This document shows, in pieces, positions 3,383-61,292 of a DNA stretch of 61,292 bases. The notes below the pieces were generated by a model that was given only the letters and a program-made list of their open reading frames with translations, was not told where the DNA came from and made no database searches. Location of the stretch: positions 1-61,292 of the forward strand of contig PXOU01000013.1 in the NCBI GenBank assembly GCA_003022365.1, read 5' to 3'. The DNA is from Candidatus Saccharibacteria bacterium QS_5_54_17. GTDB lineage: Bacteria; Patescibacteriota; Saccharimonadia; QS-5-54-17. The position numbers and the translations under genes were made by a program. Each line of letters opens with the position of its first letter. Position 1 is the first letter of the stretch.

Positions 3383-3392
3383 CGGTGGTGGC

Positions 3393-3745
3393 CTTAATGT
3401 GACAAAACTTATTGAACTCTTTTTGTCATTCCGAAAACGTCATTCCTGAAATGAATTCAGGACAGGCTATGGACCCCGCCCGCACTGAGCAAAGTCGAAG
3501 TGATCCGGGATCAGTTTCGTATGTCATTCCGAATTTAGTTCGGAACCGGTCCTGAAAACAGATCCTGAAATAAATTCAGGATGACAATTATTTTTCGTCA
3601 CCCGCTTTGTCATTCCGGCCACCGAGCCCCGAATCCATTAACCCGATATGGTCTTGAAACAGATCCTGAATAAATTCAGAGCCTGTTGCTTCTCACTCCC
3701 TGTCTACCGTCTGCTGTCTGCGTACTGCTGCCGGGAGACTATACG
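3393..3745. repeat. Mosaic hairpin-repeat cluster 2
   Basis: Start module CTTAATGTGACAAAACTTATTGAAC lies 11 nt after the stop at 3382. Hairpin modules follow. End module GTTGCTTCTCACTCCCTGTCTACC...GCCGGGAGACTATAC occupies 3685-3745. Confidence 0.85.
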
Positions 3746-4150: not shown

Positions 4151-4258
4151 GCAAGGTATTGGTATATGATCGCGCTCATCCTACTATTTTTCGGTGACCG
4201 CTGGCGGCGAAAGTCTAAGCAATAAGGTGGACTCAGAGAAAAACACCCGACCTGTTTT

Positions 4259-4287
4259 TTGACTAAAATGGGCTGATATGGTAACGT
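4259..4287 (+). promoter_or_regulatory. Candidate sigma-70 promoter giving a leaderless mRNA
   Basis: TTGACT (4259-4264), a 17-nt spacer, then TAACGT (4282-4287). The ATG at 4294 begins 7 nt after the -10 box. Confidence 0.5.
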
Positions 4288-4293
4288 AGCCTT

Positions 4294-4566
4294 ATGTTAT
4301 TCTCAGGTTCACGTTCTCGGTTGCGGAATGAAGCTCCGTCTTCATTGCCCGATCAGGCCGTCTTTCCCTCGGAAGCGCCATCTTTGCTCAGCGACTTTGA
4401 TGGAGAGGGATACGAAGCAGGGGATAAAGAAGCCCTCATGCGCATCGCCAACCAAGCGGTGGAACGGCGTATGGCGGCCGCGGCTTTGCGGCATTACGAC
4501 TTGCAAGAAAGTCCCGGCGAACATGATGCACAGCAGGCGTTAGACGAATTCGTGGATAAAAGATAA
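4294..4566 (+). CDS. Hypothetical small protein (90 aa)
   Basis: Open frame directly downstream of a good promoter. I recognise no domain. Confidence 0.45.
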   Translation: MLFSGSRSRLRNEAPSSLPDQAVFPSEAPSLLSDFDGEGYEAGDKEALMRIANQAVERRMAAAALRHYDLQESPGEHDAQQALDEFVDKR

Positions 4567-4624
4567 ACAACCCGGGCTAATCGGCCGATAATCCCGGTGA
4601 TCATCCACCTAAGCGTTTATTATG

Positions 4625-5207
4625 CCTCACTCTTTGTCACTGCGAACCTGCCTGCCGGCAGGCAGGCTTGGTTCGGAATCTGATTCTGCAATAGGGAAAC
4701 CATCCCGGATCACTTCGACCTTGTCCGCCCAAGGCGGACAGGCTCAGTGCGGGCGGAGTCCGGGATGAGGCGAACAGGAAGCAGGAAGCAAGAAGTAAGC
4801 GGGAGACGTGGACACGCAATTGCAAGCGCAATTGCAAGGAACGTCCTTGCAAGATTAAAAATCGCTACCAAAAGCGCTACTTGGCGCAAAATTGCAAGGA
4901 CGTTCCTTGCAAAAGGAGGGTTTCCTCTCTTTTTGTCATTCCTAATTTAGTTCGGAATCGTTTCTATAATAGATCCTGCAACCAAGCCTAAAATAGATCC
5001 TGAAATAAATTCAGGATGACAATCCTCTTTGTCATTCCGGCCCCCGAGCCGGAATCCATTAACCCGATATGATCCTGAAACGGATCCTGAAACAAGCCTG
5101 CCTGCCGGCAGGTAGGTTCAGGATGACAGGTTCAGAGCTTGTTGCTTCTCACTCCCTGTCTACCGCCTCCTGTCTACTGTCTGCGTGCTGCTGCCGGGAG
5201 ACTATAC
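4625..5207. repeat. Mosaic hairpin-repeat cluster 3
   Basis: Contains the CCTGCCTGCCGGCAGGCAGG palindrome, a reversed CCCGGAT module with an inner hairpin (4702-4766) and the TTGCAAGGA..TCCTTGCAA pair (4832-4912). Several hairpin types follow. The end module is at 5141-5207. Confidence 0.85.
4832..4912. repeat. 21-bp inverted repeats flanking a 39-bp spacer (copy C)
   Basis: TTGCAAGGAACGTCCTTGCAA (4832-4852) and its exact reverse complement (4892-4912) bracket the spacer. Confidence 0.85.
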
Positions 5208-5279
5208 GGGCGATACTCGCCAGCAGCGTTTCTATGTTGTCCTGTGGCTTATTGTATTACTTTTCCGAGCCGGGGCAGA

Positions 5280-6236: not shown

Positions 6237-7178
6237 ATGAAGGAGAAACCGCCGGATCAACAGCAAAATAATGCCCCTGGGCAGTCCGAGGAAGAGCCAG
6301 GGCGTACGCCTCAAGGGAACTTATCCCCGAACACGGCAGAGCAGCCCTCCCGGCCATATGTATCAAATCCGCTGCAGGTCTTCCTCGATAGCCTCAAGCG
6401 TTTGTTCACGGTGAACTTTGCTACCTTTCTTCGGTTTGCAGGGGTAATGTTATTAACGATCATCGTGGTGTCCGGCGCAATCTTATCGGCCGGGCTCCGT
6501 ACCGTGAGCAACACCGGTAACACCACCAACGGCAACATCAGCGACATCATCACCATTAATAATATTACCGGTAACCTCGGCGAGCTCGCTTGGGCAGCCA
6601 TAGGAGTTGTGGTTGTGTTGGCGTGGGGTGTCATACTCCAGGCGGCATGGAAGACATACGTTATTGAAACGGCACGTGAGAGCCGTATATCCCTGGGCAA
6701 AGCTTTCAGCAGCGGAGTCCGGAAAGCACCCGGTTTGCTTGGGGTGAATATCCTGTTCTTCGGCGGATTCTTGATCGGGCTGGGATTGTTGATTGTTCCC
6801 GGCCTCCTATTCCTGTATTGGTTTGTGTTTGCCCGGCATGTGTATATCGATACCGATGCCAGCATCCTACAGTCGTTCCGGGAGAGTAAAAAGCTGACAC
6901 AGGGCAAACTAAGGGAATTGGTCGGCTTAGCGAGCGCTACGTTGGTTTTGGGTTTGCCGGGCGCCCATTCAGGGTTCGGCACGTTCTACCAGATCCTTTT
7001 CATACCAGTAAATAGCCTTGCTTGGGCATATCGGTATACCAGCGCGGATATGCTCCAGCGAACCGAAACGCCCAAACCGGAGACCCACGTGGCCAATCTA
7101 GTTTTGCCATGCGTCATAGTAGCTTCGGTGGTACTCATTACCCTGGCATTGGCCGTTTTTACACCTTCCTGGTATTGA
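6237..7178 (+). CDS. Polytopic membrane protein, tandem paralog 1
   Basis: 313 aa. The Pro/Gln-rich N-terminus is followed by several TM segments. The core WKTYVIETARESRISL...IVPGLLFLYWF..YRYTSADMLQRT is shared with the next gene. Confidence 0.7.
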   Translation: MKEKPPDQQQNNAPGQSEEEPGRTPQGNLSPNTAEQPSRPYVSNPLQVFLDSLKRLFTVNFATFLRFAGVMLLTIIVVSGAILSAGLRTVSNTGNTTNGNISDIITINNITGNLGELAWAAIGVVVVLAWGVILQAAWKTYVIETARESRISLGKAFSSGVRKAPGLLGVNILFFGGFLIGLGLLIVPGLLFLYWFVFARHVYIDTDASILQSFRESKKLTQGKLRELVGLASATLVLGLPGAHSGFGTFYQILFIPVNSLAWAYRYTSADMLQRTETPKPETHVANLVLPCVIVASVVLITLALAVFTPSWY

Positions 7179-7206: not shown

Positions 7207-8226
7207 ATGGACTCTATGCCGCCGGACCAACAGCCAAGTAATGCGCCTGCCCGTTCCGGGGAGGAGCCAGGGCGTCCACCCGAGGGAAACTCGTCCCCGA
7301 ATACGGCAGAGCAGCCCTCCCGGCCATATGTATCCAATCCGCTGCAGGTGTTCCTCGATAGCCTCAGGCGTTTGTTTACAGTCAACTTTGCTACCTTTCT
7401 TGCGCTCGCGGGGTTGGCGTTCTTAACCATTGCCGTGTTAGCCATCGTGATCTTCGCGCCTGGTGGGTTCAGCCTCATTTTTGCGCCGATCGTAGTAATG
7501 GTTGTGTCGGCTGGTGGCGTATTCTTAACGATTGCCGCGGAAGCTTTCGCGGTCTTTGCGATCGCGAACGATACTTATGATACCACCGGTAACATCGGCG
7601 TGCTCATCCTGGGAGTGATAGGAGCAGCTGCTTTGTTGGTGTGGGGTGCCATACTCCAGGCGACGTGGAAGAAATACGTTATTGAAACGGTGCGTGAGAG
7701 CCGCATATCACTGAAAAAAACCTTGGGCAGCGGAATCAGGAAGGCACCCGGTTTGCTTTGTGTGCACGTCCTGTTCTTCGGCGGGGTGTTGGTCGGGCTG
7801 GGACTGTTCATTGTGCCAGGCCTTCTATTCCTGTATTGGTTTCTGTTTGCTCCATATGTGTATATGGATACTGATGCCGGTGTTATAGGGTCGTTCCGAA
7901 AAAGTAAAAAGCTAACCCAAGGCAAACTCGGGGAATTGCTGGGTTTGGCGGGCACTACGTTGATTTTGGGATTGCCGGCCGCTATTACAAAATTAAGCCC
8001 GTTCTACCTGATCGCGTTTAGCCCAGTTAGGAGCCTCGCTTTAGCCTATCGGTATACCAGCGCGGATATGCTCCAGCGGACCAATACGGGCAAACCGGCG
8101 AACCACGTGGCCAACGTAATAGCAGCTTTGGCGGCGCTCATTATCCTGGCATTGGCCGCCGGCTATATACATGATTGTCAACTCTCGGTTGAATGTTTCC
8201 TCCGGGGCGGGCACGTGCCCGGATAG
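7207..8226 (+). CDS. Polytopic membrane protein, tandem paralog 2
   Basis: 339 aa. The first ~65 codons are near-identical at DNA level to 6237-6430, and the conserved core is the same. The central loop region is diverged. Confidence 0.7.
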   Translation: MDSMPPDQQPSNAPARSGEEPGRPPEGNSSPNTAEQPSRPYVSNPLQVFLDSLRRLFTVNFATFLALAGLAFLTIAVLAIVIFAPGGFSLIFAPIVVMVVSAGGVFLTIAAEAFAVFAIANDTYDTTGNIGVLILGVIGAAALLVWGAILQATWKKYVIETVRESRISLKKTLGSGIRKAPGLLCVHVLFFGGVLVGLGLFIVPGLLFLYWFLFAPYVYMDTDAGVIGSFRKSKKLTQGKLGELLGLAGTTLILGLPAAITKLSPFYLIAFSPVRSLALAYRYTSADMLQRTNTGKPANHVANVIAALAALIILALAAGYIHDCQLSVECFLRGGHVPG

Positions 8227-12266: not shown

Positions 12267-12282
12267 CCTCCGCCTCCCGGAA

Positions 12283-12612
12283 CTTAATGTGATAGAAACG
12301 TATTAAACCCGCTTTGTCACTGCCAAGACGTTATCCCGGACCCCGCCCGCACTGAGCAAGGTCGAAGTGATCCGGGATCAGTTTCGGAATCGTTTGGATC
12401 CTGAAATAAATTCAGGATGACAATTTTGCAGGAAGACCTCCGACCCCCTCCGTCATTCCGAATTTAGTTCGGAATCGTTTCTGCAATAGATCCTGAAACA
12501 AGCCTGCCTGTCGGCAGACAGGTTCAGGATGACAGGTTCAGAGCTTGTTGCTTCTCACTCCCTGTATGCTGTCTACTGTCTGCTGACTGCGTGTTGCTCT
12601 GCCGGGAGACGA
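12283..12612. repeat. Mosaic hairpin-repeat cluster 4
   Basis: The start module at 12283 lies 17 nt after the stop at 12266. Hairpin modules include ATTCCGAA/TTCGGAAT at 12455-12475. The end module is at 12547-12612. Confidence 0.85.
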
Positions 12613-12717
12613 GACGCCGGAATGGTAGCGGACGTCGATGTCTTGTATACTCACCCAAGAAGCACCTGATGCTCTCGGGGCTGTTTTTTAGCCAATGGCA
12701 AGGTTTGAGGAGTTACG

Positions 12718-15765: not shown

Positions 15766-15952
15766 GCGTTTTACTGTAGTCTCATAAACAACAGCGGGCA
15801 TTTCATGTTGCCCATATATCTACAGTTTCGGCAGTGACGTGTGTCACCTCCCCAAATTTTTGTGGTGTCTATTCAGGGGCAGCTGAAAGGGATAAAATGC
15901 GCCCCGTGGAGCCGTTCGCGTGGGTAATTGTGAGGGAGATTACCAAAAAAGC

Positions 15953-15980
15953 TTGACTTCTATGGTGTGGGGTGTAGGAT
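15953..15980 (+). promoter_or_regulatory. Candidate promoter for a long leader ahead of the LysM-Rpf gene
   Basis: TTGACT (15953-15958), a 16-nt spacer, then TAGGAT (15975-15980). No credible ORF lies between here and 16334. Confidence 0.4.
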
Positions 15981-16048
15981 AGCTTTTGTGTTTTTGGCGC
16001 CTCCGGGGCCAGAGACAGGTGAGGAAACGGTGCACTATATGGGAATAT

Positions 16049-16168
16049 GTCACTGCCGAAATGCATTCAGGACAGGCTTTGATTCCGATCCAATTGTCAT
16101 CCTGAAGACGTCATCCTGAACTTGTTTCAGGATCGGTTTCAGGATCTATTCCAGCAAATGTCATTCTC
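16049..16168. repeat. Mosaic hairpin-repeat cluster 5 (short)
   Basis: GTCACTGCCGAA..., TGTCATCCTGAAGACGTCATCCTGAACTTGTTTCAGGATCGGTTTCAGGATC. These modules are shared with the other clusters. Confidence 0.8.
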
Positions 16169-16201
16169 ATCGACGTTAAAAATTGACTTCGCCTCAAAAA
16201 C

Positions 16202-16327
16202 AGGCACCTGAAACGGCGGTTATAGCTTCGGGCTTCCCATGCCTCGATGTCATTTACCTAAAAAACATCGAGCCGTTTCAGGTGCCTCCCCAGAAGTATG
16301 TAAGGCGTGGAGGCATAAAAAAGGAGG
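16202..16327 (+). promoter_or_regulatory. Structured 5' leader with alternative pairings around an anti-SD-like CCTCC
   Basis: A perfect 16-bp stem pairs 16202-16217 with 16272-16287. The GTGCCTCC at 16283-16290 could instead pair with GGAGGCA (16309-16315), and its CCTCC part (16286-16290) with the SD AAGGAGG (16321-16327). Confidence 0.4.
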
Positions 16328-16333
16328 ATTACG

Positions 16334-16900: not shown

Positions 16901-16945
16901 ACACCTGGAGTTGGGGGTAAGCGCTCCCGCTCCCCGAAAAAGATT

Positions 16946-16978
16946 CCGGGCGGCCGGGTTCCGGCCGCCCGGGGTTTT
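16946..16978 (+). terminator. Intrinsic terminator after the Rpf gene
   Basis: A 12-bp GC stem, CCGGGCGGCCGG/CCGGCCGCCCGG (16946-16972), is followed by GGTTTT. Confidence 0.7.
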
Positions 16979-17027
16979 CACGTTACTGCCGCGGAGGCGG
17001 GAATTTAACGCGGGAAAACATGAAAAC

Positions 17028-17206
17028 GATTCCGAAACAAGTTCGGAATGACGGAGAGGGGGTTCGCAGTGACAAAGAGGTTTTGCATTTTTCCACTTGC
17101 TTCTTACTTCCTGCTGCTTACTCCCTATTCTTTGTTCCCTGTCTACCGTCTACTGACTCCCACTTGCTGCTTACTTCTTACTTCTCACTCCTTGCTTCTT
17201 GTTCCC
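17028..17206. repeat. Mosaic hairpin-repeat cluster 6
   Basis: An ATTCCGAA/TTCGGAAT hairpin is followed by GTGACAAAGAGG and a long CT-rich tract. That tract includes the end-module core CCCTGTCTACCGTCT. Confidence 0.8.
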
Positions 17207-17277
17207 GCCGCCCGGCTGCACACCCGGCATGGATTGTGTCAAAATAGCCGGTGTCGCCTGACTAAGGAGAGATATTT

Positions 17278-21369: not shown

Positions 21370-21382
21370 AAATGATAGAGGA

Positions 21383-21850
21383 GTGTCATTCCTGAATTGT
21401 CATTCCTGAAACAAGTTCAGGACAGGCTCTGAATTTATTTCAGGATCTATTTTAGGACCAGATTCCGAACCAAGTTCGGAATGACAAAAAGAGAGGAACC
21501 CCTCCTTTTGCAAGGACCGTCCTTGCAATACATAGAATTGCTGCATAAAGCTTTTATTGAGCCAATCTTGCAAGGACGGTCCTTGCAATTGCGTGTCACT
21601 TCTCCTGCTTGCTTCTTGTTCCTGTCATCCTGAATTTATTTCAGGATCTATTTTAGGATCAGATTCCGAACTAAGTTCGCAGTGGCGGAGGAGGGCTCGG
21701 AATGGCAAAGAAGCTTCGCATTTTCCCACTTACTGCTTACTCCTTGCTGCTTGCTTCCCGTTCTTTACTCCCTGTCTGCTGTCTGCTGTCTACCGCCTAC
21801 TGTTACCTGCTTACTCCTTACTTCCTGCTGCTTGCTTCCCGTTCTTTGCT
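21383..21850. repeat. Mosaic hairpin-repeat cluster 7
   Basis: Contains hairpin modules and the TTGCAAGGAC..GTCCTTGCAA pair (21508-21588) in reversed context. Long CT-rich tracts follow. The right end overlaps the last codons of rpsT. Confidence 0.85.
21508..21588. repeat. 21-bp inverted repeats flanking a 39-bp spacer (copy B; spacer inverted relative to its flanks)
   Basis: The flanks are the reverse complement of those at 51621-51702, but the spacer TACATAGAATTGCT..CCAATC is in the same absolute orientation. Confidence 0.85.
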
Positions 21851-22168
21851 GCCGGCGGTTTGTTTCTGACTGCTACCGGAAGTTGACTTGGTTTTGGTGG
21901 TGGAAGCGAACGCTTGCTCCAGTTGCCGGTTCAGCCGGGATTTTTTCCGGGCGGCGGTGTTCTTTTTGATGACACCCTTTTTGACCGCTTTATCGATGGC
22001 TTTCTGGGCGGTTTTGGCGTGCTCCCGGACCTGCTGTTGCTGCCCGGTGGCAATCGCGTCATAACTGTCCTTGATGGCTTGGCGCATGGCGCGCTTGGCG
22101 TTTAAGTTTTCCCGGTACCGGGAGGTATTCTGTCGCATCCGTTTTTGGGCGGATTTGATATTCGGCAT
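21818..22168 (-). CDS. rpsT: 30S ribosomal protein S20
   Basis: MPNIKSAQKRMRQN start. At 116 aa it is about 25-30 aa longer than usual. The last codons and the stop lie in an AAG-rich repeat module. Confidence 0.9.
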   Translation of the reverse strand: MPNIKSAQKRMRQNTSRYRENLNAKRAMRQAIKDSYDAIATGQQQQVREHAKTAQKAIDKAVKKGVIKKNTAARKKSRLNRQLEQAFASTTKTKSTSGSSQKQTAGSKEREASSRK

Positions 22169-25252: not shown

Positions 25253-25257
25253 CAGAC

Positions 25258-25455
25258 CTTAATATGAAAGAAACGTATTGCACACCTCCTTGTTGTTTAC
25301 TGCAGGGGAGGTATTTAGTAAGCCGAAAGACGAGGCGGATGGGTCTTAGGAAGTGCCGATAAAAGCGTGTTATCCCTACCTCTCCGCTTCGTCACTGCGA
25401 ATTTATTTCGGAATCCGGTCTTAAAACAGATCCTGAAATAAATTCAGGATGACAA
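25258..25455. repeat. Mosaic hairpin-repeat cluster 8
   Basis: A start-module variant at 25258 lies 6 nt after the truB stop. It is followed by the CACCTCC..GGGAGG hairpin and ATCCTGAA/TTCAGGAT. Confidence 0.8.
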
Positions 25456-25557
25456 TGTAACCCGGCCACTCCCGTCGCCGAAAAGCTCATGCTTGCCGCT
25501 TTTGCACGTGCATGCTATTGTGCCCATTCATTCAAATCTGCTAATATACAGCTGAGT

Positions 25558-25824: not shown

Positions 25825-25832
25825 GGTGGATC

Positions 25833-26083
25833 GTCACTCTGAATTTGTTGGGGAATCGGTTCTGATTTTGAAACAGATCCGGAAACCGATCCTGAAACAA
25901 GCCTGCCTGCCGGCAGACAGGTTCAGGATGACATCTTCAGGATGAGGCGAACAAGAAGCAGGAAGTAAGAAGTAAGTAGGGAAATGCAAATCCTCTCTGT
26001 CACTGCGAACCCCCTCCATCACTCCGAAGACCCGGACCCCGCCCGCACTGAGCAAAGTCGAAGTGATCCGGGATCCTTTTCGG
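25833..26083. repeat. Mosaic hairpin-repeat cluster 9
   Basis: Contains the CCTGCCTGCCGGCAGACAGG palindrome, an AAG-rich tract, and the GGACCCCGCCCGCACTGAGCAAAGTCGAAGTGATCCGGGAT module. Confidence 0.85.
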
Positions 26084-31440: not shown

Positions 31441-31732
31441 AAGTAAGCAGAAAGAAGTAAGAAGCAAGTGGGAGTCAGTAGTCAGGAGACGGTAGACGGT
31501 AGACAGGGAACAAAAATTAAGAAGCAAGCAGCAGGAAGTAAGAAGTAAGTTTCGGAATCGACTTTGATCCTGAAATAAATTCAGGATGACAATAGGGGAA
31601 GATCCTGAAACAAGCCTGCCTGTCGGCAGACAGGTTCAGGATGACATCATCTTCAGGAATGACATATTCAGCAATGATATTTCGCCTGGGTTTTTGTTGC
31701 CGGGTTTTGATAATAAGCCGGGAGACTATACA
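31441..31732. repeat. Mosaic hairpin-repeat cluster 10
   Basis: Begins at the rnj stop with AAG-rich tracts and a reversed end-module core (GGAGACGGTAGACGGTAGACAGGGAA). Hairpins follow. It ends ...GCCGGGAGACTATAC. Confidence 0.85.
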
Positions 31733-31773
31733 CCCGTCTGTACCCGCTGCAGTCTAGGCTATATAATGGCGGT

Positions 31774-37587: not shown

Positions 37588-37628
37588 AAGGTGAGTTAAT
37601 TACAACTGATTTAATATTTCTCGCTTTA

Positions 37629-38057
37629 CTATTGCTCGCCATCTGCTCCGTTATCGTAATCAAGTAACAAGTCTTGTTTCATATCATCACGAAGTCCGAT
37701 GTTATCAGCCACTTTGGCGATAATGCCATCAAGTTTACGTGCACCATCTGGATCGTCGTTAACATACTGCTCAATATGCTCAGCAACACTCTCGACATCA
37801 ATATCTCTACCCACAAAGTACACCTCGCGCAATAACTCCATCTCCTCGTCGCTTAACTCCTCGAACGCTTCGGGGTGAAATTCGTACATAGTTAAGGCAA
37901 AGTTGTGTTGCTTTCCCAATGTCTCCAAAGTCTGCTTATTCATATCGTAATCATACTCTTCCATAGTAAAAGATTTGAGCAGTTTATAGTCAGGGGCGGA
38001 CGGGAGTTTAGAGGTTTGGTAATAATATCGAACTGTGGGACAACTCCCGTCCGCCAT
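37629..38057 (-). CDS. Strongly acidic hypothetical protein (142 aa)
   Basis: Asp/Glu-rich throughout (EEYDYDM, SDEEMELL, YVNDDPDG). It sits in a low-GC segment and is the second gene of a two-gene minus-strand unit. Confidence 0.5.
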   Translation of the reverse strand: MADGSCPTVRYYYQTSKLPSAPDYKLLKSFTMEEYDYDMNKQTLETLGKQHNFALTMYEFHPEAFEELSDEEMELLREVYFVGRDIDVESVAEHIEQYVNDDPDGARKLDGIIAKVADNIGLRDDMKQDLLLDYDNGADGEQ

Positions 38058-38082
38058 CCTGAGTGCTCAGGACTTGGTTGTG

Positions 38083-38286
38083 CTACTCCGGTGCGTGATC
38101 CTTGCTGACGGAAACTCCTCCGCCGGACCCCTTGGTGGCGACCCAGCTGTCCGAATGCATGCTTCCGTCCTGGCCGGGGTGGGGGTTGTTGTTGGCCATG
38201 CCTTCGCTAACCATGTGAACCGTGGTACCCGGCTCCTCGTCACGAAGGATCTGTCGCCCTGCCTCACGTGCTTGCTTTCGGTTCAT
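38083..38286 (-). CDS. Small hypothetical protein (67 aa)
   Basis: I take the start at the internal Met (MNRKQAREAGRQ...), which follows AAGGAG. The upstream ORF extension lacks an SD and has atypical composition. Confidence 0.45.
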   Translation of the reverse strand: MNRKQAREAGRQILRDEEPGTTVHMVSEGMANNNPHPGQDGSMHSDSWVATKGSGGGVSVSKDHAPE

Positions 38287-38419
38287 GGCAACTCCTTTGC
38301 CTTGACGGTGCCAAGGCGTAAGCGACGCGAGCGTACACAACCCTATTCGGTTGTAAAGTGCATAGCATCGATAGTCCTCGATGCTACTATTGAGTATAGC
38401 AAAGTTGTGAGTTGGTTTC

Positions 38420-38725
38420 AAAAATTGCTACCAAAAGCGCTACTTGGCGCAAAATTGCAAGGACGTTCCTTGCAAACGACTGTTCCTTGCAAACGACATG
38501 ATCCTGAAATAAATTCAGGATGACAATTCAGGGGTGACACTCCCCTCCGTCATTCCGAATTTAGTTCGGAATCGTTTCTGCAATAGATCCTGAAATAGAT
38601 CCTGAAACAAGTTCAGGATGACGTTTCTTCTTTGTCATTCCGAACTTGTTTCGGAATCGGCTCTGAATTTATTTCAGGAATGATATTCAGTCCGGTTTTT
38701 GTTGCCGGGTTTTGATAATGGACTA
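38420..38725. repeat. Mosaic hairpin-repeat cluster 11
   Basis: Contains a truncated spacer plus TTGCAAGGACGTTCCTTGCAA (38455-38475), ATCCTGAA/TTCAGGAT and ATTCCGAA/TTCGGAAT hairpins. It ends with a TTGTTGCCGGGTTTTGATAAT variant. Confidence 0.85.
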
Positions 38726-38775
38726 TGTGTGGTGTGGATCTTACGCATTTGGGGGTTTTGATTACCCGCCGAAAT

Positions 38776-39891: not shown

Positions 39892-40043
39892 AACGTCTTC
39901 TCCTTGGGTGGGTCCTTAGGCACATCCGAAACCCGCGGCCCCGCAAACTCATATGGGTCGATCACATGGGTCGATGCCGATTGATGATAACACACCCCGC
40001 CCATGAGCGACGCGGCGTTGGTGCAACAAAATCAATCCCTGTG

Positions 40044-40406
40044 CTTAATGTGACAGGAACTTATTAAACCATCTTTGTCATTCCGAATTTAGTTCGGAAT
40101 CGTTTGGATCCTGAAACAAGTTCAGGATGACAAGAGAGGAGGATCCTGAAATAAATTCAGGATGACAGGAGCAAGAAGCAGGAAGCAAGAAGCAAGAAGT
40201 AAGTGGAAAAATGCAAAGCCTCTCCGTCATTCCGAACTTGTTTCGGAATCCAATTCTGAAACCGATCCTGAAACTGATCCCGGATCACTTCGACCTTGTC
40301 CGTCCAAGGCGGACAGGCTCAGTGCGGGTGGGGTCATAGCCTGTCCTGAATTCATTTCAGCAGTGACATCTTCAGGGCCTGTCCTGAACTTGTTTCAGCA
40401 GTGACA
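40044..40406. repeat. Mosaic hairpin-repeat cluster 12
   Basis: Start module at 40044, then hairpins and an AAG-rich tract. A reversed CCCGGAT module with an inner hairpin lies at about 40277-40335. Confidence 0.85.
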
Positions 40407-40466
40407 TTTGCGTTGCGGGTTTGGGTTCCGGGATGGTACAGTGGACATTAATCATAAGAGTCATGT

Positions 40467-41285: not shown

Positions 41286-41374
41286 TCTTAAGCGAAAAAA
41301 AAGGGGGGGGCGGACCCCGGCGTGTAATCACCTAGGTGATGGCTGCTCGCGGCCGTGAAGCCACATGCCGGGGG

Positions 41375-41950
41375 CTTAGTGTGACAGAAACTTATTGAAC
41401 CCTCTTTGTCACTGCGAACTTGTTTCGGAATCCGGTTCTGAAATAGATCCTGAAACAAGTTCAGGATGACGGGAATAAGAAGCAATAAGTAAGGAGTAAG
41501 AAGTAAGCGGGAGACGTGATACGCAATTGCAAGGACGGTCCTTGCAAAAGGAGGGTCCTCTCTTTTTGTCACTGGGAATTTAGTTCGGAATCTAATTCTG
41601 TAATACAGAAACGATCCCGGATGGGAGTCCGGGATGACAGGAAGAGAGTGTCATTCCGGCCGCCGAGCCGGAATCCATGAAGCCGATATGGTTTGAAACA
41701 GATCCTGAAATAAATTCAGGATGACAATAGGGGAAGATCCTGAAACGGATCCTGAAACAAGCCTGCCTGCCGGCAGGCAGGTTCAGGATGACATCTTCAG
41801 GATGACGGATTTAGGTGTGAGGATTCTGAACCAAGTTCAGAATGACAATAGGGGAAAATCCTGAAATAAATTCAGGAATGACAGGTTCAGGGCCTGTTGC
41901 TTCTCACTCCCTGTCTACTGTCTGCGTGCTGCTGCCGGGAGGCTATCCGG
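41375..41950. repeat. Mosaic hairpin-repeat cluster 13
   Basis: Start module at 41375, a solo TTGCAAGGACGGTCCTTGCAA (41527-41547), and many hairpins. The end module at 41896-41950 abuts the stop codon of the convergent gene. Confidence 0.85.
41527..41547. repeat. Solo 21-bp palindrome (collapsed form of the palindrome-spacer-palindrome module)
   Basis: It has the same flanks (ACGCAA ... AAGGAGGG) as copies at 51621-51702 and 4832-4912. Only one palindrome is present and there is no spacer. Confidence 0.8.
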
Positions 41951-41952
41951 GA

Positions 41953-51405: not shown

Positions 51406-51424
51406 TCAACCAAGTCCGGGGCCT

Positions 51425-52232
51425 GCTTAGTCTGACAGAAACTTGTTGAACACCTCCCCGACACTGCGACCCCCCTATCTGTCATTCCGGCCGCCGAGCC
51501 GGAATCCATGAATCCGATATGATCCTGAAACAGATCCTGAAACAAGTTCAGGATGACATCTTCAGGATGACAGGAATAAGAAGCAAGCAGTAAGAAGTAA
51601 GCGGGAAACGTGACACGCAATTGCAAGGACCGTCCTTGCAATACATAAAATTGCTCCCATAAAGCTTTTGTTTAACCAATCTTGCAAGGACGGTCCTTGC
51701 AAAAGGAGGGTTTCCTCTCTTTTTGTCATTCCGGCCTCCGAGCCGGAATCCATGAATTCGATATGATCCTGAAACAGATCCTGAAATAAATTCAGGATGA
51801 CAACAGAGGAAGATCCTGAAACAAGCCTGCCTGCCGGCAGGCAGGTTCAGGATGACAGGCATAAGAAGCAAGCAGTAAGAAGTAAGTGAAAAAATGCAAA
51901 ACCTCTTTGTCATTCTGCCCCCCTCCGTCATTCCGAACTTGGTTCGGAATCATTTGGAGCCTGGAATAGATCCTGAAACAAGTTCAGGATGACAGGAATA
52001 AGAAGCAAGCAGTAAGAAGTAAGGAGCAAGTGGAAAAATGCAAAGTCTTTCTGTCACTGCGACCCTCCTCCGTCATTCCGAATTTAGTTCGGAATCCAAT
52101 TCTAAATAGATCTTGAAACCGATCCTGAACCAAGCCCGCCTGCCGGCAGGCAGGTTCAGACGGACATCTTCAGAGCCTGTTGCTTGTCACTCCCTGTCTA
52201 CTGTCTGTGTGCTGCTGCCGGGAGCTTCTACG
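51425..52232. repeat. Mosaic hairpin-repeat cluster 14 (largest)
   Basis: The start module at 51425 lies 20 nt after the pilC stop. More than 15 hairpin modules, three AAG-rich tracts and the palindrome pair at 51621-51702 follow. The end module is at 52179-52232. Confidence 0.9.
51621..51702. repeat. 21-bp inverted repeats flanking a 40-bp spacer (copy A)
   Basis: TTGCAAGGACCGTCCTTGCAA (51621-51641) and TTGCAAGGACGGTCCTTGCAA (51682-51702) bracket TACATAAAATTGCTCCC...CCAATC. Confidence 0.9.
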
Positions 52233-52236
52233 CCTG

Positions 52237-52266
52237 TTGACGCTTGGCACCCGATGCGGATACAAT
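52237..52266 (+). promoter_or_regulatory. Candidate sigma-70 promoter of the pilin operon
   Basis: TTGACG (52237-52242), an 18-nt spacer, then TACAAT (52261-52266). AAGGAGG (52291-52297) and the GTG start at 52306 lie downstream. Confidence 0.55.
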
Positions 52267-56607: not shown

Positions 56608-56609
56608 TA

Positions 56610-56965
56610 CTTAGTCTGACAGAAACTTATTAAACACCTCCTTGCTGTTTACTACAGGGAGGTAGTCAGCAGACAGTAGACGGTATACAGGAAACAGGAA
56701 GTAAGCAGCAAGAAGTAAGAAGTAAGTGGAAATAAAAGTGTGTTATTCCTGCCTCCTCTCTTTGTCATTCCGAACTTGTTTCGGAATCCGGCTCTGAAAC
56801 AGATCCTGAAATAAATTCAGGATGACAAGAGAGGACGATCCTGAAACAGAATCCTGAAACTGATCCCGGATCGGGGTCCGGGATGACATCTTCAGGATGA
56901 CATTCAGAGCCTGTTGCTTCTCACTCCCTGTCTGCTGTCTGCGTGCTGCTGCGGGAGACTATACC
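56610..56965. repeat. Mosaic hairpin-repeat cluster 15
   Basis: The start module at 56610 lies 3 nt after the stop at 56607. It is followed by the CACCTCC..GGGAGG hairpin, AAG-rich tracts and further hairpins. The end module is at 56913-56965. Confidence 0.85.
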
Positions 56966-56971
56966 ATGATA

Positions 56972-57000
56972 TTGCACACATACCGCCCATGGTTTATAGT
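56972..57000 (+). promoter_or_regulatory. Candidate sigma-70 promoter of pilM-pilB-pilT (near-leaderless)
   Basis: TTGCAC (56972-56977), a 17-nt spacer, then TATAGT (56995-57000). The ATG at 57009 begins 8 nt after the -10 box. Confidence 0.55.
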
Positions 57001-57008
57001 GTGGTCAA

Positions 57009-60976: not shown

Positions 60977-61037
60977 CTTGACGGGCAATTGACCCAGGAA
61001 TGGAGGTGGGGCATCCGGTGTTGCTCGCCTGGGCGTA

Positions 61038-61185
61038 GCCAATTTAGTTCGGAACTGGCTCTGCAATAGATCCTGAAACGGATCCTGAAACAAGTTCAGG
61101 ATGACAAAGAGGATTGGCATTTTTCACTTACTCCTTACTTCCTGTTCCCTGTCTGCTGTCTGCGTACTGCTGCCGGGAGACTGTA
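61038..61185. repeat. Mosaic hairpin-repeat cluster 16
   Basis: An AATTTAGTTCGGAA module is followed by ATCCTGAA/TTCAGGAT, GACAAAGAGG and a CT-rich tract. An end-module core ...CTGCTGCCGGGAGACTGTAC closes the cluster. Confidence 0.8.
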
Positions 61186-61189
61186 CGCG

Positions 61190-61286
61190 CCGGTGCACTA
61201 GTTCAGACACATCCCGTACACATTGAGCTTCTGAAAAGGAGGCTCCATGAAGTACGGTATATCCATGCAAACCTATGGAACCGTCG
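61190..61286. repeat. Right arm of the window-spanning inverted duplication (partner 1-97)
   Basis: See the feature at 1-97. The mismatches are at 61192, 61233 and 61260 by my alignment. Confidence 0.9.
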
Positions 61287-61292
61287 TTCCCG
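61247..61292 (+). CDS. 5' end of an unidentified gene running off the right edge (MKYGISMQTYGTVVP...)
   Basis: ATG at 61247 follows AAAGGAGG. It is a paralog of the minus-strand gene start at 1-40, with one amino-acid difference in 13. Confidence 0.5.
   Translation, partial: MKYGISMQTYGTVVP

Follow-up and report, generated by a model that had tools for sequence, protein, structure and literature searches.

The window, by which we mean the whole 61-kb stretch of DNA analyzed here, comes from a Saccharibacteria (TM7) chromosome and contains about 54 open reading frames (ORFs). Pfam scans of all long ORFs identified housekeeping genes only, and Rfam at gathering thresholds detected one tRNA-Ser and nothing else. 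Short repeat modules, organized as strain-specific arrays, pack the intergenic regions of this genome; within the window the repeats are spread across about 16 intergenic regions. Genomes of CPR bacteria, including Saccharibacteria, are usually viewed as small and streamlined, and the modular arrays of 300-1100 bp found in most intergenic regions of this lineage contrast with that view. Array content varies between strains with >90% amino-acid identity. Contig ends fall in array modules, and the assembly of L024 breaks immediately after pilC.

Some of these arrays contain an element of 81-82 bp in which two 21-base palindromes are arranged as mirror images around a loop of about 40 bases (Table 1). 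A 21-mer search allowing up to 3 mismatches found 8 copies of the palindrome, TTGCAAGGA-NNN-TCCTTGCAA, in the window, while 100 shuffles gave an expectation of 0.01 copies and never as many as 8. All 8 copies are intergenic and form three inverted doublets (A, B and C, with spacers of 39-40 nt) and two singlets (D and E). The five loci were all found at the positions listed in an earlier note on this DNA. Within each doublet one arm is the exact reverse complement of the other, and this extends to the asymmetric centre, which reads CCG/CGG in A and B and ACG/CGT, a mirrored variant, in C; compared as direct repeats, the arms of the doublets show 1-3 mismatches vs 0 as inverted repeats. Single-stranded DNA of the doublets is predicted to fold into hairpins of -26.5 to -31.2 kcal/mol (z = -6.4 to -8.4), with copy A at -26.5 kcal/mol (z = -6.4) and copy C at -31.2 kcal/mol (z = -7.5). 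As had been described before, copy E consists of both flanks and one palindrome without a spacer, and copy D of a spacer and a single palindrome. The D spacer is of the C type (35/39 matches to the C spacer) and its arm is the C variant; a C-type spacer with an arm recurs at D outside the usual flanks. Right flanks of A and C are identical at 30/30 positions, while their spacers match at only 23/40.

Table 1. Coordinates in the window of the palindrome copies, the arrays and units that carry them, and adjacent features.
Feature	Position	Strand	Description
Copy A left arm	51621..51641	.	TTGCAAGGACCGTCCTTGCAA
Copy A spacer	51642..51681	+	40 nt, hairpin loop
Copy A right arm	51682..51702	.	exact reverse complement of A left arm
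Copy B left arm	21508..21528	.	21-mer search
Copy B spacer	21529..21567	+	39 nt; in A's absolute orientation, inverted vs its own flanks and array
Copy B right arm	21568..21588	.	21-mer search
Copy C	4832..4912	.	arms 4832-4852 and 4892-4912; 39-nt spacer 4853-4891, second type
Copy D	38412..38475	.	C-type spacer and single C-variant arm 38455-38475; no left arm
Copy E	41527..41547	.	lone palindrome between both flank modules; no spacer
Tandem duplication, left border of C	4815..4838	+	12 bp, CGCAATTGCAAG x2
Tandem duplication, right border of D	38465..38497	+	17 bp, GTTCCTTGCAAACGACT x1.9
Array with copy A	51406..52236	+	intergenic, pilC to pilin promoter; four tandem units, A in the first
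Array with copy B	21370..21817	-	intergenic, convergent genes holA/rpsT; reversed vs array of A
Unit bearing copy A	51470..51713	+	244 bp; 89-nt direct repeats 51470-51558 and 51714-51802 (family D20, 91% identity, spacing 244)
Unit bearing copy B	21458..21658	-	201 bp, register within the direct repeats arbitrary; 55-nt direct repeats 21429-21483 and 21630-21684 (family D13)
Predicted sigma-70-like promoter by D	38393..38421	-	TTGAAA-17-TATACT, 10/12 matches, TG extension

Copies A, C and E and the reverse-complemented copy B share a common organization of heptamers, xL (GTGACACGCAA), a palindrome alone or with spacer and second palindrome, P(-S-P), xR (AAGGAGGGTTTCCTCT) and TGTCA. The copy-bearing unit of these four loci aligns with six "generic" junctions in these arrays that have no palindrome and from which the xL and xR segments are absent too. 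The palindrome unit breaks the 150-240 bp repeating unit of the array at one fixed position, and the break always falls at the same "GGAAAAA|TGCAAAG|CCTCT" junction. The earlier note had missed that larger intergenic arrays include the elements as modules.

The organization around A, B, C and E is kept, and B differs only by its reversed loop. When B is reverse-complemented, its 30-nt flanks match those of A at 25/30 positions on the left and 29/30 on the right, whereas its spacer matches that of A at 34/40 in the same absolute orientation vs 24/46 reversed. The previous description of the B spacer as inverted relative to its own flanks is thus borne out. The B flanks had also been called exact reverse complements of those of A; reverse complements they are, but not exact ones, as the 17-nt right flank has one mismatch (GAGAGGAACCCCTCCTT in B vs GAGAGGAAACCCTCCTT in the reverse complement of A). 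The A-type orientation that had been assigned to copy C cannot be established, since the A and C spacers score equally both ways (6 vs 6; 23/40 vs 24/46), and only the longer D copy shows a weak forward preference (10 vs 8). Because the orientation of C is ambiguous, A and B provide the single clear orientation contrast. Assemblies L023 and L107 of the same strain are identical at A and B, which as consensus assemblies would mask minority forms.

In relatives with >90% amino-acid identity the same sites are also occupied by arrays, and the palindrome is absent from these relatives in about 50 kb; a relative with 78% identity has a 75-bp spacer without repeats. Strain L229 (~96% identical) lacks the entire 201-bp unit bearing copy B. 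The promoter/ORF segment next to D is not present in relatives L111 and L113. The pilin gene has its own promoter (52237-52266) about 550 bp downstream of copy A, and this promoter is conserved in relatives without the element. By these sequence comparisons, neighbouring genes do not need the element and close relatives dispense with it.

Copies B and E are located between convergent genes. A consensus scan found no sigma-70-like promoter inside A or B, in agreement with the earlier note, which could not define a convincing promoter in the spacer. A promoter in the spacer was accordingly rejected; the sole strong promoter-like site is beside D, outside the repeat, where it directly abuts the D spacer and lies at the head of two small ORFs that are specific to the strain (38285-38083 and 38057-37629). 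Neither the ORF pair beside C nor the pair beside D matched a Pfam, PHROG or NCBIfam family of known function, and one ORF beside C gave a lone weak PHROG match of unknown function (E = 0.0046). An intrinsic terminator was also rejected: the 21-bp stem is not followed by a T-run, and the weak 5-bp hairpin of the right flank alone scores. Permissive Rfam miRNA-precursor models reached 24.7 bits vs a gathering threshold of 73, which simply reflects the long hairpin, and a known RNA family was dismissed. Pfam scans of the ~54 ORFs in the 61-kb window detected no transposase and no serine or tyrosine recombinase. A RAYT or Y1 transposase domain was likewise not found among these ORFs, with only 61 kb of the genome visible, and neither were cas domains in the window ORFs or a parent autonomous element with the same ends in the window.

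Beyond this genome, the exact 21-mer was found only in other CPR genomes, mostly within long ORFs. The 21-nt palindrome family, whose inclusion of the arms the earlier note had overlooked, occurs in several CPR classes and mostly within essential genes; 40/59 (68%) of family copies in other CPR loci are within open frames of at least 150 aa. These intragenic copies are found in all three frames, and 68% is near the value for random positions. Genes with such copies include ArgS, PriA, TilS, RecF, DinB and RecG (loci L001-L014). In an alignment of 76 MnmA sequences, L013 has seven additional residues (LQGPSLQ) compared to L091 and L057, and L003 has seven (LQGRSLQ) at a different site compared to L027; insertion status was judged on these close MnmA orthologues from other CPR genomes and not on the window copies. 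An inverted doublet is present in L089 in the same MnmA loop as in L013, and inverted doublets with mirrored asymmetric centres were detected in L089, L143, L144, L220 and L221. In L012 the 21-mer has a TATAAT box on one side and a start codon on the other, and in L011 it extends into a longer hairpin directly past a stop codon. No target-site duplication was observed around the window copies, where the flanks read ...ACGCAA (left) and AAGGAG... (right), or around single copies in other genomes.

We favor, with confidence that is about evenly balanced, the interpretation that the 82-bp unit is a hairpin repeat of a non-coding, REPIN/MITE-like type, that palindrome-driven recombination or replication template switching flipped its loop and collapsed its arms, and that these changes are fixed and represent no regulated switch. 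Two inverted copies of the palindrome would form a 21-bp stem around the ~40-nt loop, and the resulting element would be one module of the strain-specific tandem arrays filling intergenic regions. Array units bearing the element would be copied and lost as blocks when the direct repeats on either side recombine. The loop inside one such block could have flipped once, in B vs A, by intramolecular recombination or template switching between the arms, a process known from minute inversions of hairpin loops in chloroplast DNA. Because each arm is nearly self-complementary, the arms could act as direct repeats too, and slipped mispairing between them would remove the loop together with one arm to leave singlet E. 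The rearrangements would then be fixed evolutionary changes of selfish or structural DNA.

The anatomy of the element, its position in the arrays, the gain or loss of blocks, the slippage scars and the lack of switch features are direct observations. The idea in the earlier note that inversion and deletion arise from recombination at inverted, self-palindromic repeats fits this anatomy in general terms. This idea is further supported by the slippage duplications (12 bp at the C border and 17 bp at the D border), by the presence/absence polymorphism of the B-bearing unit in comparison with L229, and by the organization kept around A, B, C and E with the loop alone reversed in B. A flip in place rather than a re-insertion, as well as the molecular route, we infer; with palindromic arms, an in-place flip and a re-insertion in the opposite direction leave identical sequence. 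Counting against this interpretation are the reliance on A vs B for orientation, the disagreement between flanks and spacers (A vs C, and the context of D), which fits elements moving independently of their flanks, and the lack of a mobilizing enzyme, RAYT or other, in the visible 61 kb. If the interpretation is correct, hairpin repeats yield a flipped loop as an ordinary by-product, and there is no reason to pursue it as a phase-variation switch.

That same disagreement between near-identical flanks and strongly different spacers, and the reappearance of the C-type spacer with an arm at D, would be explained if the P-S-P hairpin, or a spacer with one arm, were a small mobile element that enters a resident palindrome or the "TGCAA" junction of an array either way around. 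E would then be an unfilled or primary site, A, B and C would be filled sites, and B would have received its insertion in the direction opposite to A. The absence of the palindrome family from close relatives that have the same arrays suggests recent invasion, and the clean 7-codon insertions at two different MnmA sites and the recurrence of mirrored-centre inverted doublets in five other CPR loci point the same way. Yet xL and xR, which are missing from generic junctions, keep the array orientation in B and the loop alone is reversed, so the inserted unit would have to be the loop with its arms, precisely targeted to a resident palindrome. With neither a target-site duplication, nor a transposase or RAYT in the window, nor a match in phage and plasmid collections, we consider such orientation-blind insertion possible but rather unlikely. 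It is improbable that the palindrome serves as a protein-binding site or structural signal (an operator, a terminator-like hairpin, or a site for a nucleoid or replication protein), with the doublet being a functional cis element in which loop orientation is irrelevant. At D, palindrome and spacer are directly upstream of the -35 box of the strong predicted promoter, the placements in L012 and L011 are suggestive of a signal, and the right flank, in which a T-run comes after GGAGGGTTTCCTCT, weakly resembles a terminator. However, a near-random distribution over long ORFs in three frames is unexpected for a regulatory site, close relatives have no palindrome at the same intergenic sites, the 21-bp stem has no T-run directly after it, and the copies sit within non-conserved repeat arrays.

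The earlier note had also raised a site-specific switch, in which a recombinase would flip the 40-bp segment between the 21-bp inverted repeats and thereby alter expression of a neighbour. Inverted repeats do bound a segment seen in both orientations relative to its flanks, and copy A precedes a type IV pilin gene, and genes of this class are often phase-variable. But without a recombinase among the ~54 ORFs of the 61 kb, an internal promoter in A or B, or any orientation difference between same-strain assemblies, and with B and E between convergent gene ends, a programmed switch is unsupported and very improbable. The pilin gene moreover has its own promoter, conserved where the element is absent, and close relatives do without the element. 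To our knowledge, recombinase-driven invertible segments are all far longer than the 40 bp found here between 21-bp repeats, and so short a segment does not allow synapsis in known inversion systems. Least probable of all, to the point of being hardly credible, is that the palindromes misled the assembler and the B spacer was misoriented. Palindromes and dense repeats do fragment these assemblies, as seen at contig ends and in L024, but the element (81-82 bp) fits within one read and falls below the k = 119 of the ENA contigs, and an independent ENA assembly agrees exactly at A and differs at one position in 6.9 kb around B. The B spacer has its own substitutions compared to A (34/40) and is therefore not a misplaced copy of A.

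Several other candidates were rejected. A CRISPR-like mini-array is inconsistent with arms that are inverted (0 mismatches vs 1-3 as direct repeats), with spacers that are homologous between A and B and between C and D, and with the lack of cas genes. TIGR arrays and integron attC sites were set aside on account of the dispersed repeats, the lack of a Nop-domain protein or an integrase in the window, and ends without attC R'/R'' motifs. A phage or plasmid origin was discarded, as the element had no blastn match in phage and plasmid collections and the exact 21-mer was not found in IMG/VR.

Among known systems, REPINs are inverted doublets that form hairpins, with compensatory changes being common and singlets representing remnants (PMC3116915). 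The element shares with REPINs and REP sequences the two inverted, imperfect palindromes of ~20 nt around a less conserved spacer, a long predicted single-stranded DNA hairpin, mirrored arm changes (those of C vs A and B), singlets beside doublets, and intergenic mosaics with tandem clusters that take in flanking DNA. It differs in that no RAYT (IS200/IS605-like tyrosine transposase) is found in this window, the self-complementarity of the arms is almost perfect, the copy number is only 8 in 61 kb with none in close relatives, and the family in other CPR genomes is mostly within genes and so not "extragenic". MITEs have terminal inverted repeats in common with the element, where these are 21 bp and perfect, whereas the element has no target-site duplication. 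In the invertible promoters of fimS, hin and Bacteroides, segments of ~170-1000 bp carry an internal promoter, a recombinase gene lies close by, and populations are heterogeneous. The element resembles them in having inverted repeats around a segment seen in two orientations, but its segment is 40 bp, A and B have no internal promoter, and the window has no recombinase.

Hairpin-associated small inversions of chloroplast non-coding DNA were reportedly described by Kelchner & Wendel in 1996. Such inversions, 4-50 bp long, occur pervasively across plastid DNA (PMC12371153), and the element likewise has a short loop between inverted repeats in either orientation, with 39-40 nt falling within this range. 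The chloroplast flips are thought to be passive, via the hairpin, and to be accompanied by slippage indels, and the pairing of homologous flanks with a reversed loop that characterizes them is what we found in A vs B. The chloroplast cases, however, are orthologous loci across taxa with recurrent flips, whereas ours are paralogous copies in one genome.

The SDR repeats of Nostoc punctiforme, reported by Elhai et al. in 2008, are said to be very small (21-27 nt) and dispersed, with no known mobilizing protein. SDRs reportedly share with the CPR repeats a size of ~21 nt, hairpin potential, insertion behaviour and the company of tandem heptamer tracts and other small repeats. The CPR repeats belong to a different sequence family in another phylum, and they additionally form inverted doublets with mirrored centres and occur in frame inside housekeeping genes, neither of which is known for SDRs. 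Rickettsia palindromic elements (RPEs) are in-frame palindromic insertions that leave the reading frame intact in unrelated housekeeping genes of a host-dependent bacterium with a reduced genome (PMC10969869). In-frame palindromic insertion in housekeeping genes is thus common to both, but RPEs are ~100-150 bp and encode a conserved peptide (PMC10969869), whereas the CPR palindrome spans 7 codons (21 nt) and occurs in all three frames. Insertion relative to close orthologues, as for SDRs and RPEs, is evident in MnmA of other CPR genomes.

The clean 7-codon MnmA insertions and the inverted doublets with mirrored centres suggest a mobile palindrome family of very small size that is so far undescribed. 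It is plausible, if somewhat short of evenly so, that the arms represent a hairpin repeat family (TTGCAAGG-N5-CCTTGCAA, 21 nt) across CPR which inserts regardless of coding status, is stop-free in six frames, adds exactly 7 codons to housekeeping proteins and duplicates into perfect inverted doublets with mirrored centres, the 82-bp units being doublets that enclose a 40-nt loop. Because no transposase is associated with the repeats, a replication- or repair-linked mechanism of spread is proposed as a possibility. Literature searches returned no paper with the 21-mer halves in a relevant context or with the peptides LQGRSLQ or LQGPSLQ, and nothing on palindromic repeats in Saccharibacteria or CPR. 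If the family is truly mobile, it would rank among the smallest known mobile units, supply CPR proteins with insertions of 7 residues and cause assemblies to break in metagenome bins of CPR bacteria. In comparisons of TilS and MnmA with their PDB homologues, the palindrome falls in loops of variable length.

The 21-nt palindrome TTGCAAGGACSGTCCTTGCAA was found in exactly eight copies in the window when up to three mismatches were allowed, against a chance expectation of 0.01 (100 dinucleotide-preserving shuffles), and the count was still eight at six mismatches. Its form, TTGCAAGGA-NNN-TCCTTGCAA, is a 9-bp stem with an asymmetric 3-nt centre. The copies make up three inverted doublets (A, B and C), in which two arms enclose a spacer of about 40 nt, and two singlets with one arm (D and E). 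In each doublet, one arm is the exact reverse complement of the other, down to the centre (CCG/CGG for A and B, ACG/CGT for C), and compared as direct repeats the two differ at one to three positions. A strong single-stranded DNA hairpin is predicted for the element (-26.5 to -31.2 kcal/mol, z = -6.4 to -8.4).

Re-reading all five loci bore out the sequences and coordinates of the earlier note together with its main observation, an inversion of the B spacer relative to its own flanks: this spacer matches that of A at 34/40 positions un-reversed vs 24/46 reversed. Flanks of B are the reverse-complemented flanks of A, as had been proposed (25/30 and 29/30 for 30-nt flanks), but they are not exact, since the right-flank copy has one mismatch. 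The sequence observation is correct and is not a product of chance. An A-type orientation had also been assigned to the C spacer; this is ambiguous, as the A-C alignment scores equal both ways, and with the longer D copy there is only a weak forward preference for the orientation of the C-type spacer relative to A (10 vs 8).

Coordinates of element copies, intergenic arrays and neighbouring features in the window, with array modules and loci (L-numbers) from other genomes and metagenome contigs
Feature	Position or locus	Sequence or size
Doublet A	51621-51702	
Doublet B	21508-21588	
Doublet C	4832-4912	
Singlet D	38455-38475	
Singlet E	41527-41547	
Array-type intergenic regions	1-736, 3383-3685, 4151-5230, 12267-12717, 15766-16333, 16901-17277, 21370-21817, 25253-25488, 25825-26062, 31441-31773, 38476-38775, 39892-40466, 41286-41952, 51406-52236, 56608-57008, 60977-61292	
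Array module, hairpin		TGTCATTCCGAA...TTCGGAATC
Array module, hairpin		GATCCTGAA...TTCAGGATGACA
Array module, heptamer tracts		AAGNAAG + CTGTCTN
Array module, junction		'GGAAAAATGCAAAGCCTCTTTGTCA' (also written GGAAAAATGCAAAGCCTCT)
Unit carrying B	21458-21658 (vs L229:1835-1884)	201 bp
Promoter-like site next to D	38421-38393, minus	TTGAAA-17-TATACT
Strain-specific insert with two small ORFs next to D	37600-38475, minus	~0.85 kb; ORFs of 67 and 142 aa
Pilin gene promoter	52237-52266	TTGACG-18-TACAAT
rpsT (S20) ORF	21818-22168, minus	
Adjacent similar ORFs	6237-7178; 7207-8226	313 aa; 339 aa
Complementary window ends	1-109; 61178-61286	
21-mer or variants inside housekeeping genes	L001, L003, L006-L010, L013, L014, L089	
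Inverted doublets with mirrored asymmetric centres	L143:3189, L143:7317, L144:890, L220:7537, L221:2511, L089:1273	
RecG-like ORF of a Nomurabacteria MAG	L006:1-2137	

These arrangements had been tentatively attributed either to a site-specific switch or to palindrome-mediated rearrangement. The latter reading is reasonable, while nothing was found in favour of the switch. Recombinase, integrase and transposase domains were detected in none of the window ORFs, and consensus scans identified no promoter inside A or B. Copies B and E are both located between convergent genes, B where the 3' ends of holA and rpsT face each other and E between two other genes. A promoter of its own precedes the pilin gene and is also conserved in relatives without the element. 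Independent ENA contigs from the same strain contain A exactly and B in a 6.9-kb stretch with a single mismatch, both with unchanged loop orientation; these are consensus sequences, which could hide minority forms, so this comparison carries little weight. To our knowledge, known invertible segments are far longer than 40 bp.

The flipped loop is of less interest than two features of its context, namely the intergenic arrays of this Saccharibacteria lineage, which are hypervariable, and a CPR-wide, largely intragenic 21-nt palindrome family which supplies the arms of the element. The window is bacterial chromosomal DNA, with Saccharibacteria MAGs as the closest genomes, and its genes include dnaG, two sigma-70 paralogues, polA, fpg, holA, rpsT, truB, rpsO, pnp, RNase J, ftsK, ssb, efp, ychF and a type IV pilus cluster. 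Most of its intergenic regions are 300-1100 bp long and are built from few modules (two hairpin types ending TGTCA/TGACA, heptamer tracts and one junction), which repeat in tandem as units of 150-240 bp and occur in either orientation; the pilC-pilin spacer comprises four such units, each of about 150-240 bp. When A, C, E and the reverse complement of B were placed in one multiple alignment with six array junctions free of the palindrome, the palindrome unit with its short flanking segments xL (GTGACACGCAA) and xR (AAGGAGGGTTT) always interrupts one junction, at 'TGCAA'. The four palindrome-bearing units share a common organisation, and the loop is reversed in B only.

At the two ends of the 61,292-bp window lie array-module copies that are complementary to each other at 93%, and assembly probably stopped there because the arrays could not be crossed. 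Another contig from ENA, the related L024, likewise breaks directly after pilC. The C-terminal tail of S20 (...TSGSSQKQTAGSKEREASSRK) extends into the heptamer tract of the adjoining array. Close relatives have an S20 of 116-134 aa, and it therefore seems that this ribosomal protein gene has had its end altered by the repeats. Two adjacent ORFs without a significant Pfam family share DNA stretches that are 78-80% identical (repeat families D15 and D17) and are thus a tandem gene duplication.

Arrays differ among relatives. The pilC-pilin spacer measures 75 bp and is repeat-free in a MAG whose PilC is 78% identical. Strains with PilC, HolA or YchF more than 90% identical have the same modules at the same sites in another order, and the palindrome is absent from about 50 kb of their sequence. 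Locus L229 (~96% nucleotide identity) contains the holA-rpsT array of the window minus the 201-bp unit carrying B, which is bounded by 55-nt direct repeats; A lies within a comparable unit, 244 bp long, between direct repeats of 89 nt (family D20). Presence or absence of the 201-bp unit between such similar strains, with direct repeats at its borders, shows that arrays change by whole units; element-bearing units are therefore gained or lost as blocks. Duplications of 12 bp at the left border of C and 17 bp at the right border of D, identified by Tandem Repeats Finder, are slippage scars at palindromes.

Copy D is made up of one arm with a C-type spacer. It immediately adjoins the -35 box of a strong promoter-like site heading two small ORFs, for which no family was detectable, and it forms the upstream border of a strain-specific insert of ~0.85 kb between ychF and an ftsJ-like gene. 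Two related loci (L111 and L113) are without this insert, and the two genes are directly convergent there. Since the D-containing segment is missing in these loci, the C/D spacer type may be derived from the insert or have been carried with it, in either direction.

By analogy, the element is most likely a REPIN-type hairpin repeat. In REPINs, a ~20-nt palindrome occurs as inverted doublets around a less conserved spacer, with a hairpin, mirrored arm changes and accompanying singlets (PMC3116915), and the inverted doublets described here likewise have a less conserved spacer, a single-stranded DNA hairpin, mirrored arm changes and singlets beside them. We prefer an account in which hairpin-carrying array units would be copied between and within arrays, the loop would be flipped in place in one copy lineage through recombination between the arms or template switching from one to the other, and near-self-complementary arms could mispair as direct repeats, with the loss of the loop and one arm producing E. 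Hairpin-loop inversions of 4-50 bp are pervasive in plastid non-coding DNA, with slippage indels alongside (PMC12371153), and the loop reversal in B and the slippage duplications resemble this behaviour.

The main rival explanation is that the hairpin, or a spacer with one arm, is itself mobile and enters a resident palindrome in either orientation. It is favoured by the identical right flanks of A and C (30/30) next to spacers matching at only 23/40 positions, by the recurrence of the C-type spacer and arm at D in another context, and by the absence of the palindrome family from sister strains. With palindromic arms, re-insertion and the in-place flip of our preferred account leave identical sequence.

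Outside the window, the exact 21-mer was detected at seven loci in a collection of species-representative genomes, compared to ~0.5 expected by chance according to our own calculation, and in seven metagenome contigs; no viral contig contained it. All six lineage-named genome records with the exact 21-mer are Saccharibacteria or Nomurabacteria. Nine of the 14 exact copies are located inside long ORFs resembling ArgS, PriA, TilS, RecF, DinB, RecG and MnmA. The 21-mer is free of stop codons over six frames, and its intragenic copies use each of the three reading frames, giving LQG[PR]SLQ, CKD[RG]PC or ARTVLA. An alignment of 76 Saccharibacteria MnmA sequences revealed two separate sites with a clean insertion of 7 residues (L013 vs L091 and L057; L003 vs L027), and in MnmA of L089 the loop that is affected in L013 carries an inverted doublet whose arms are 6 nt apart.

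A relaxed scan with TTGCAAGG-N5-CCTTGCAA, for which a few hundred chance matches are expected across the collection, returned 115 loci; 42 of these were CPR as counted by record name, with two MAGs assigned via Saccharibacteria-like MnmA loci. Self-complementary centres were far more common in CPR matches (20/45) than in non-CPR matches (12/75). Open frames of at least 150 aa contained 68% of 59 CPR copies vs 78% of random positions in the same loci. Inverted doublets outside the window have spacers of -3 to 6 nt, with overlapping arms in L220, and their mirrored centres make each arm look like an inverted copy of the other and not like an independent insertion.

A description of a CPR 21-nt palindrome family was not found in the searchable literature. 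One of its nearest analogues is the small dispersed repeats of Nostoc, reportedly 21-27 nt long in the work of Elhai et al. from 2008, to which PMC3116915 refers. The other is the palindromic elements of Rickettsia, which are inserted in-frame (PMC10969869). The RecG-like ORF of the Nomurabacteria MAG has several palindrome copies (LQGQTLN, LQGPSLT, RCKDRPCN and ARTVLV), and the peptide NILQHKNSYKQDSLVC is duplicated around a large insertion.
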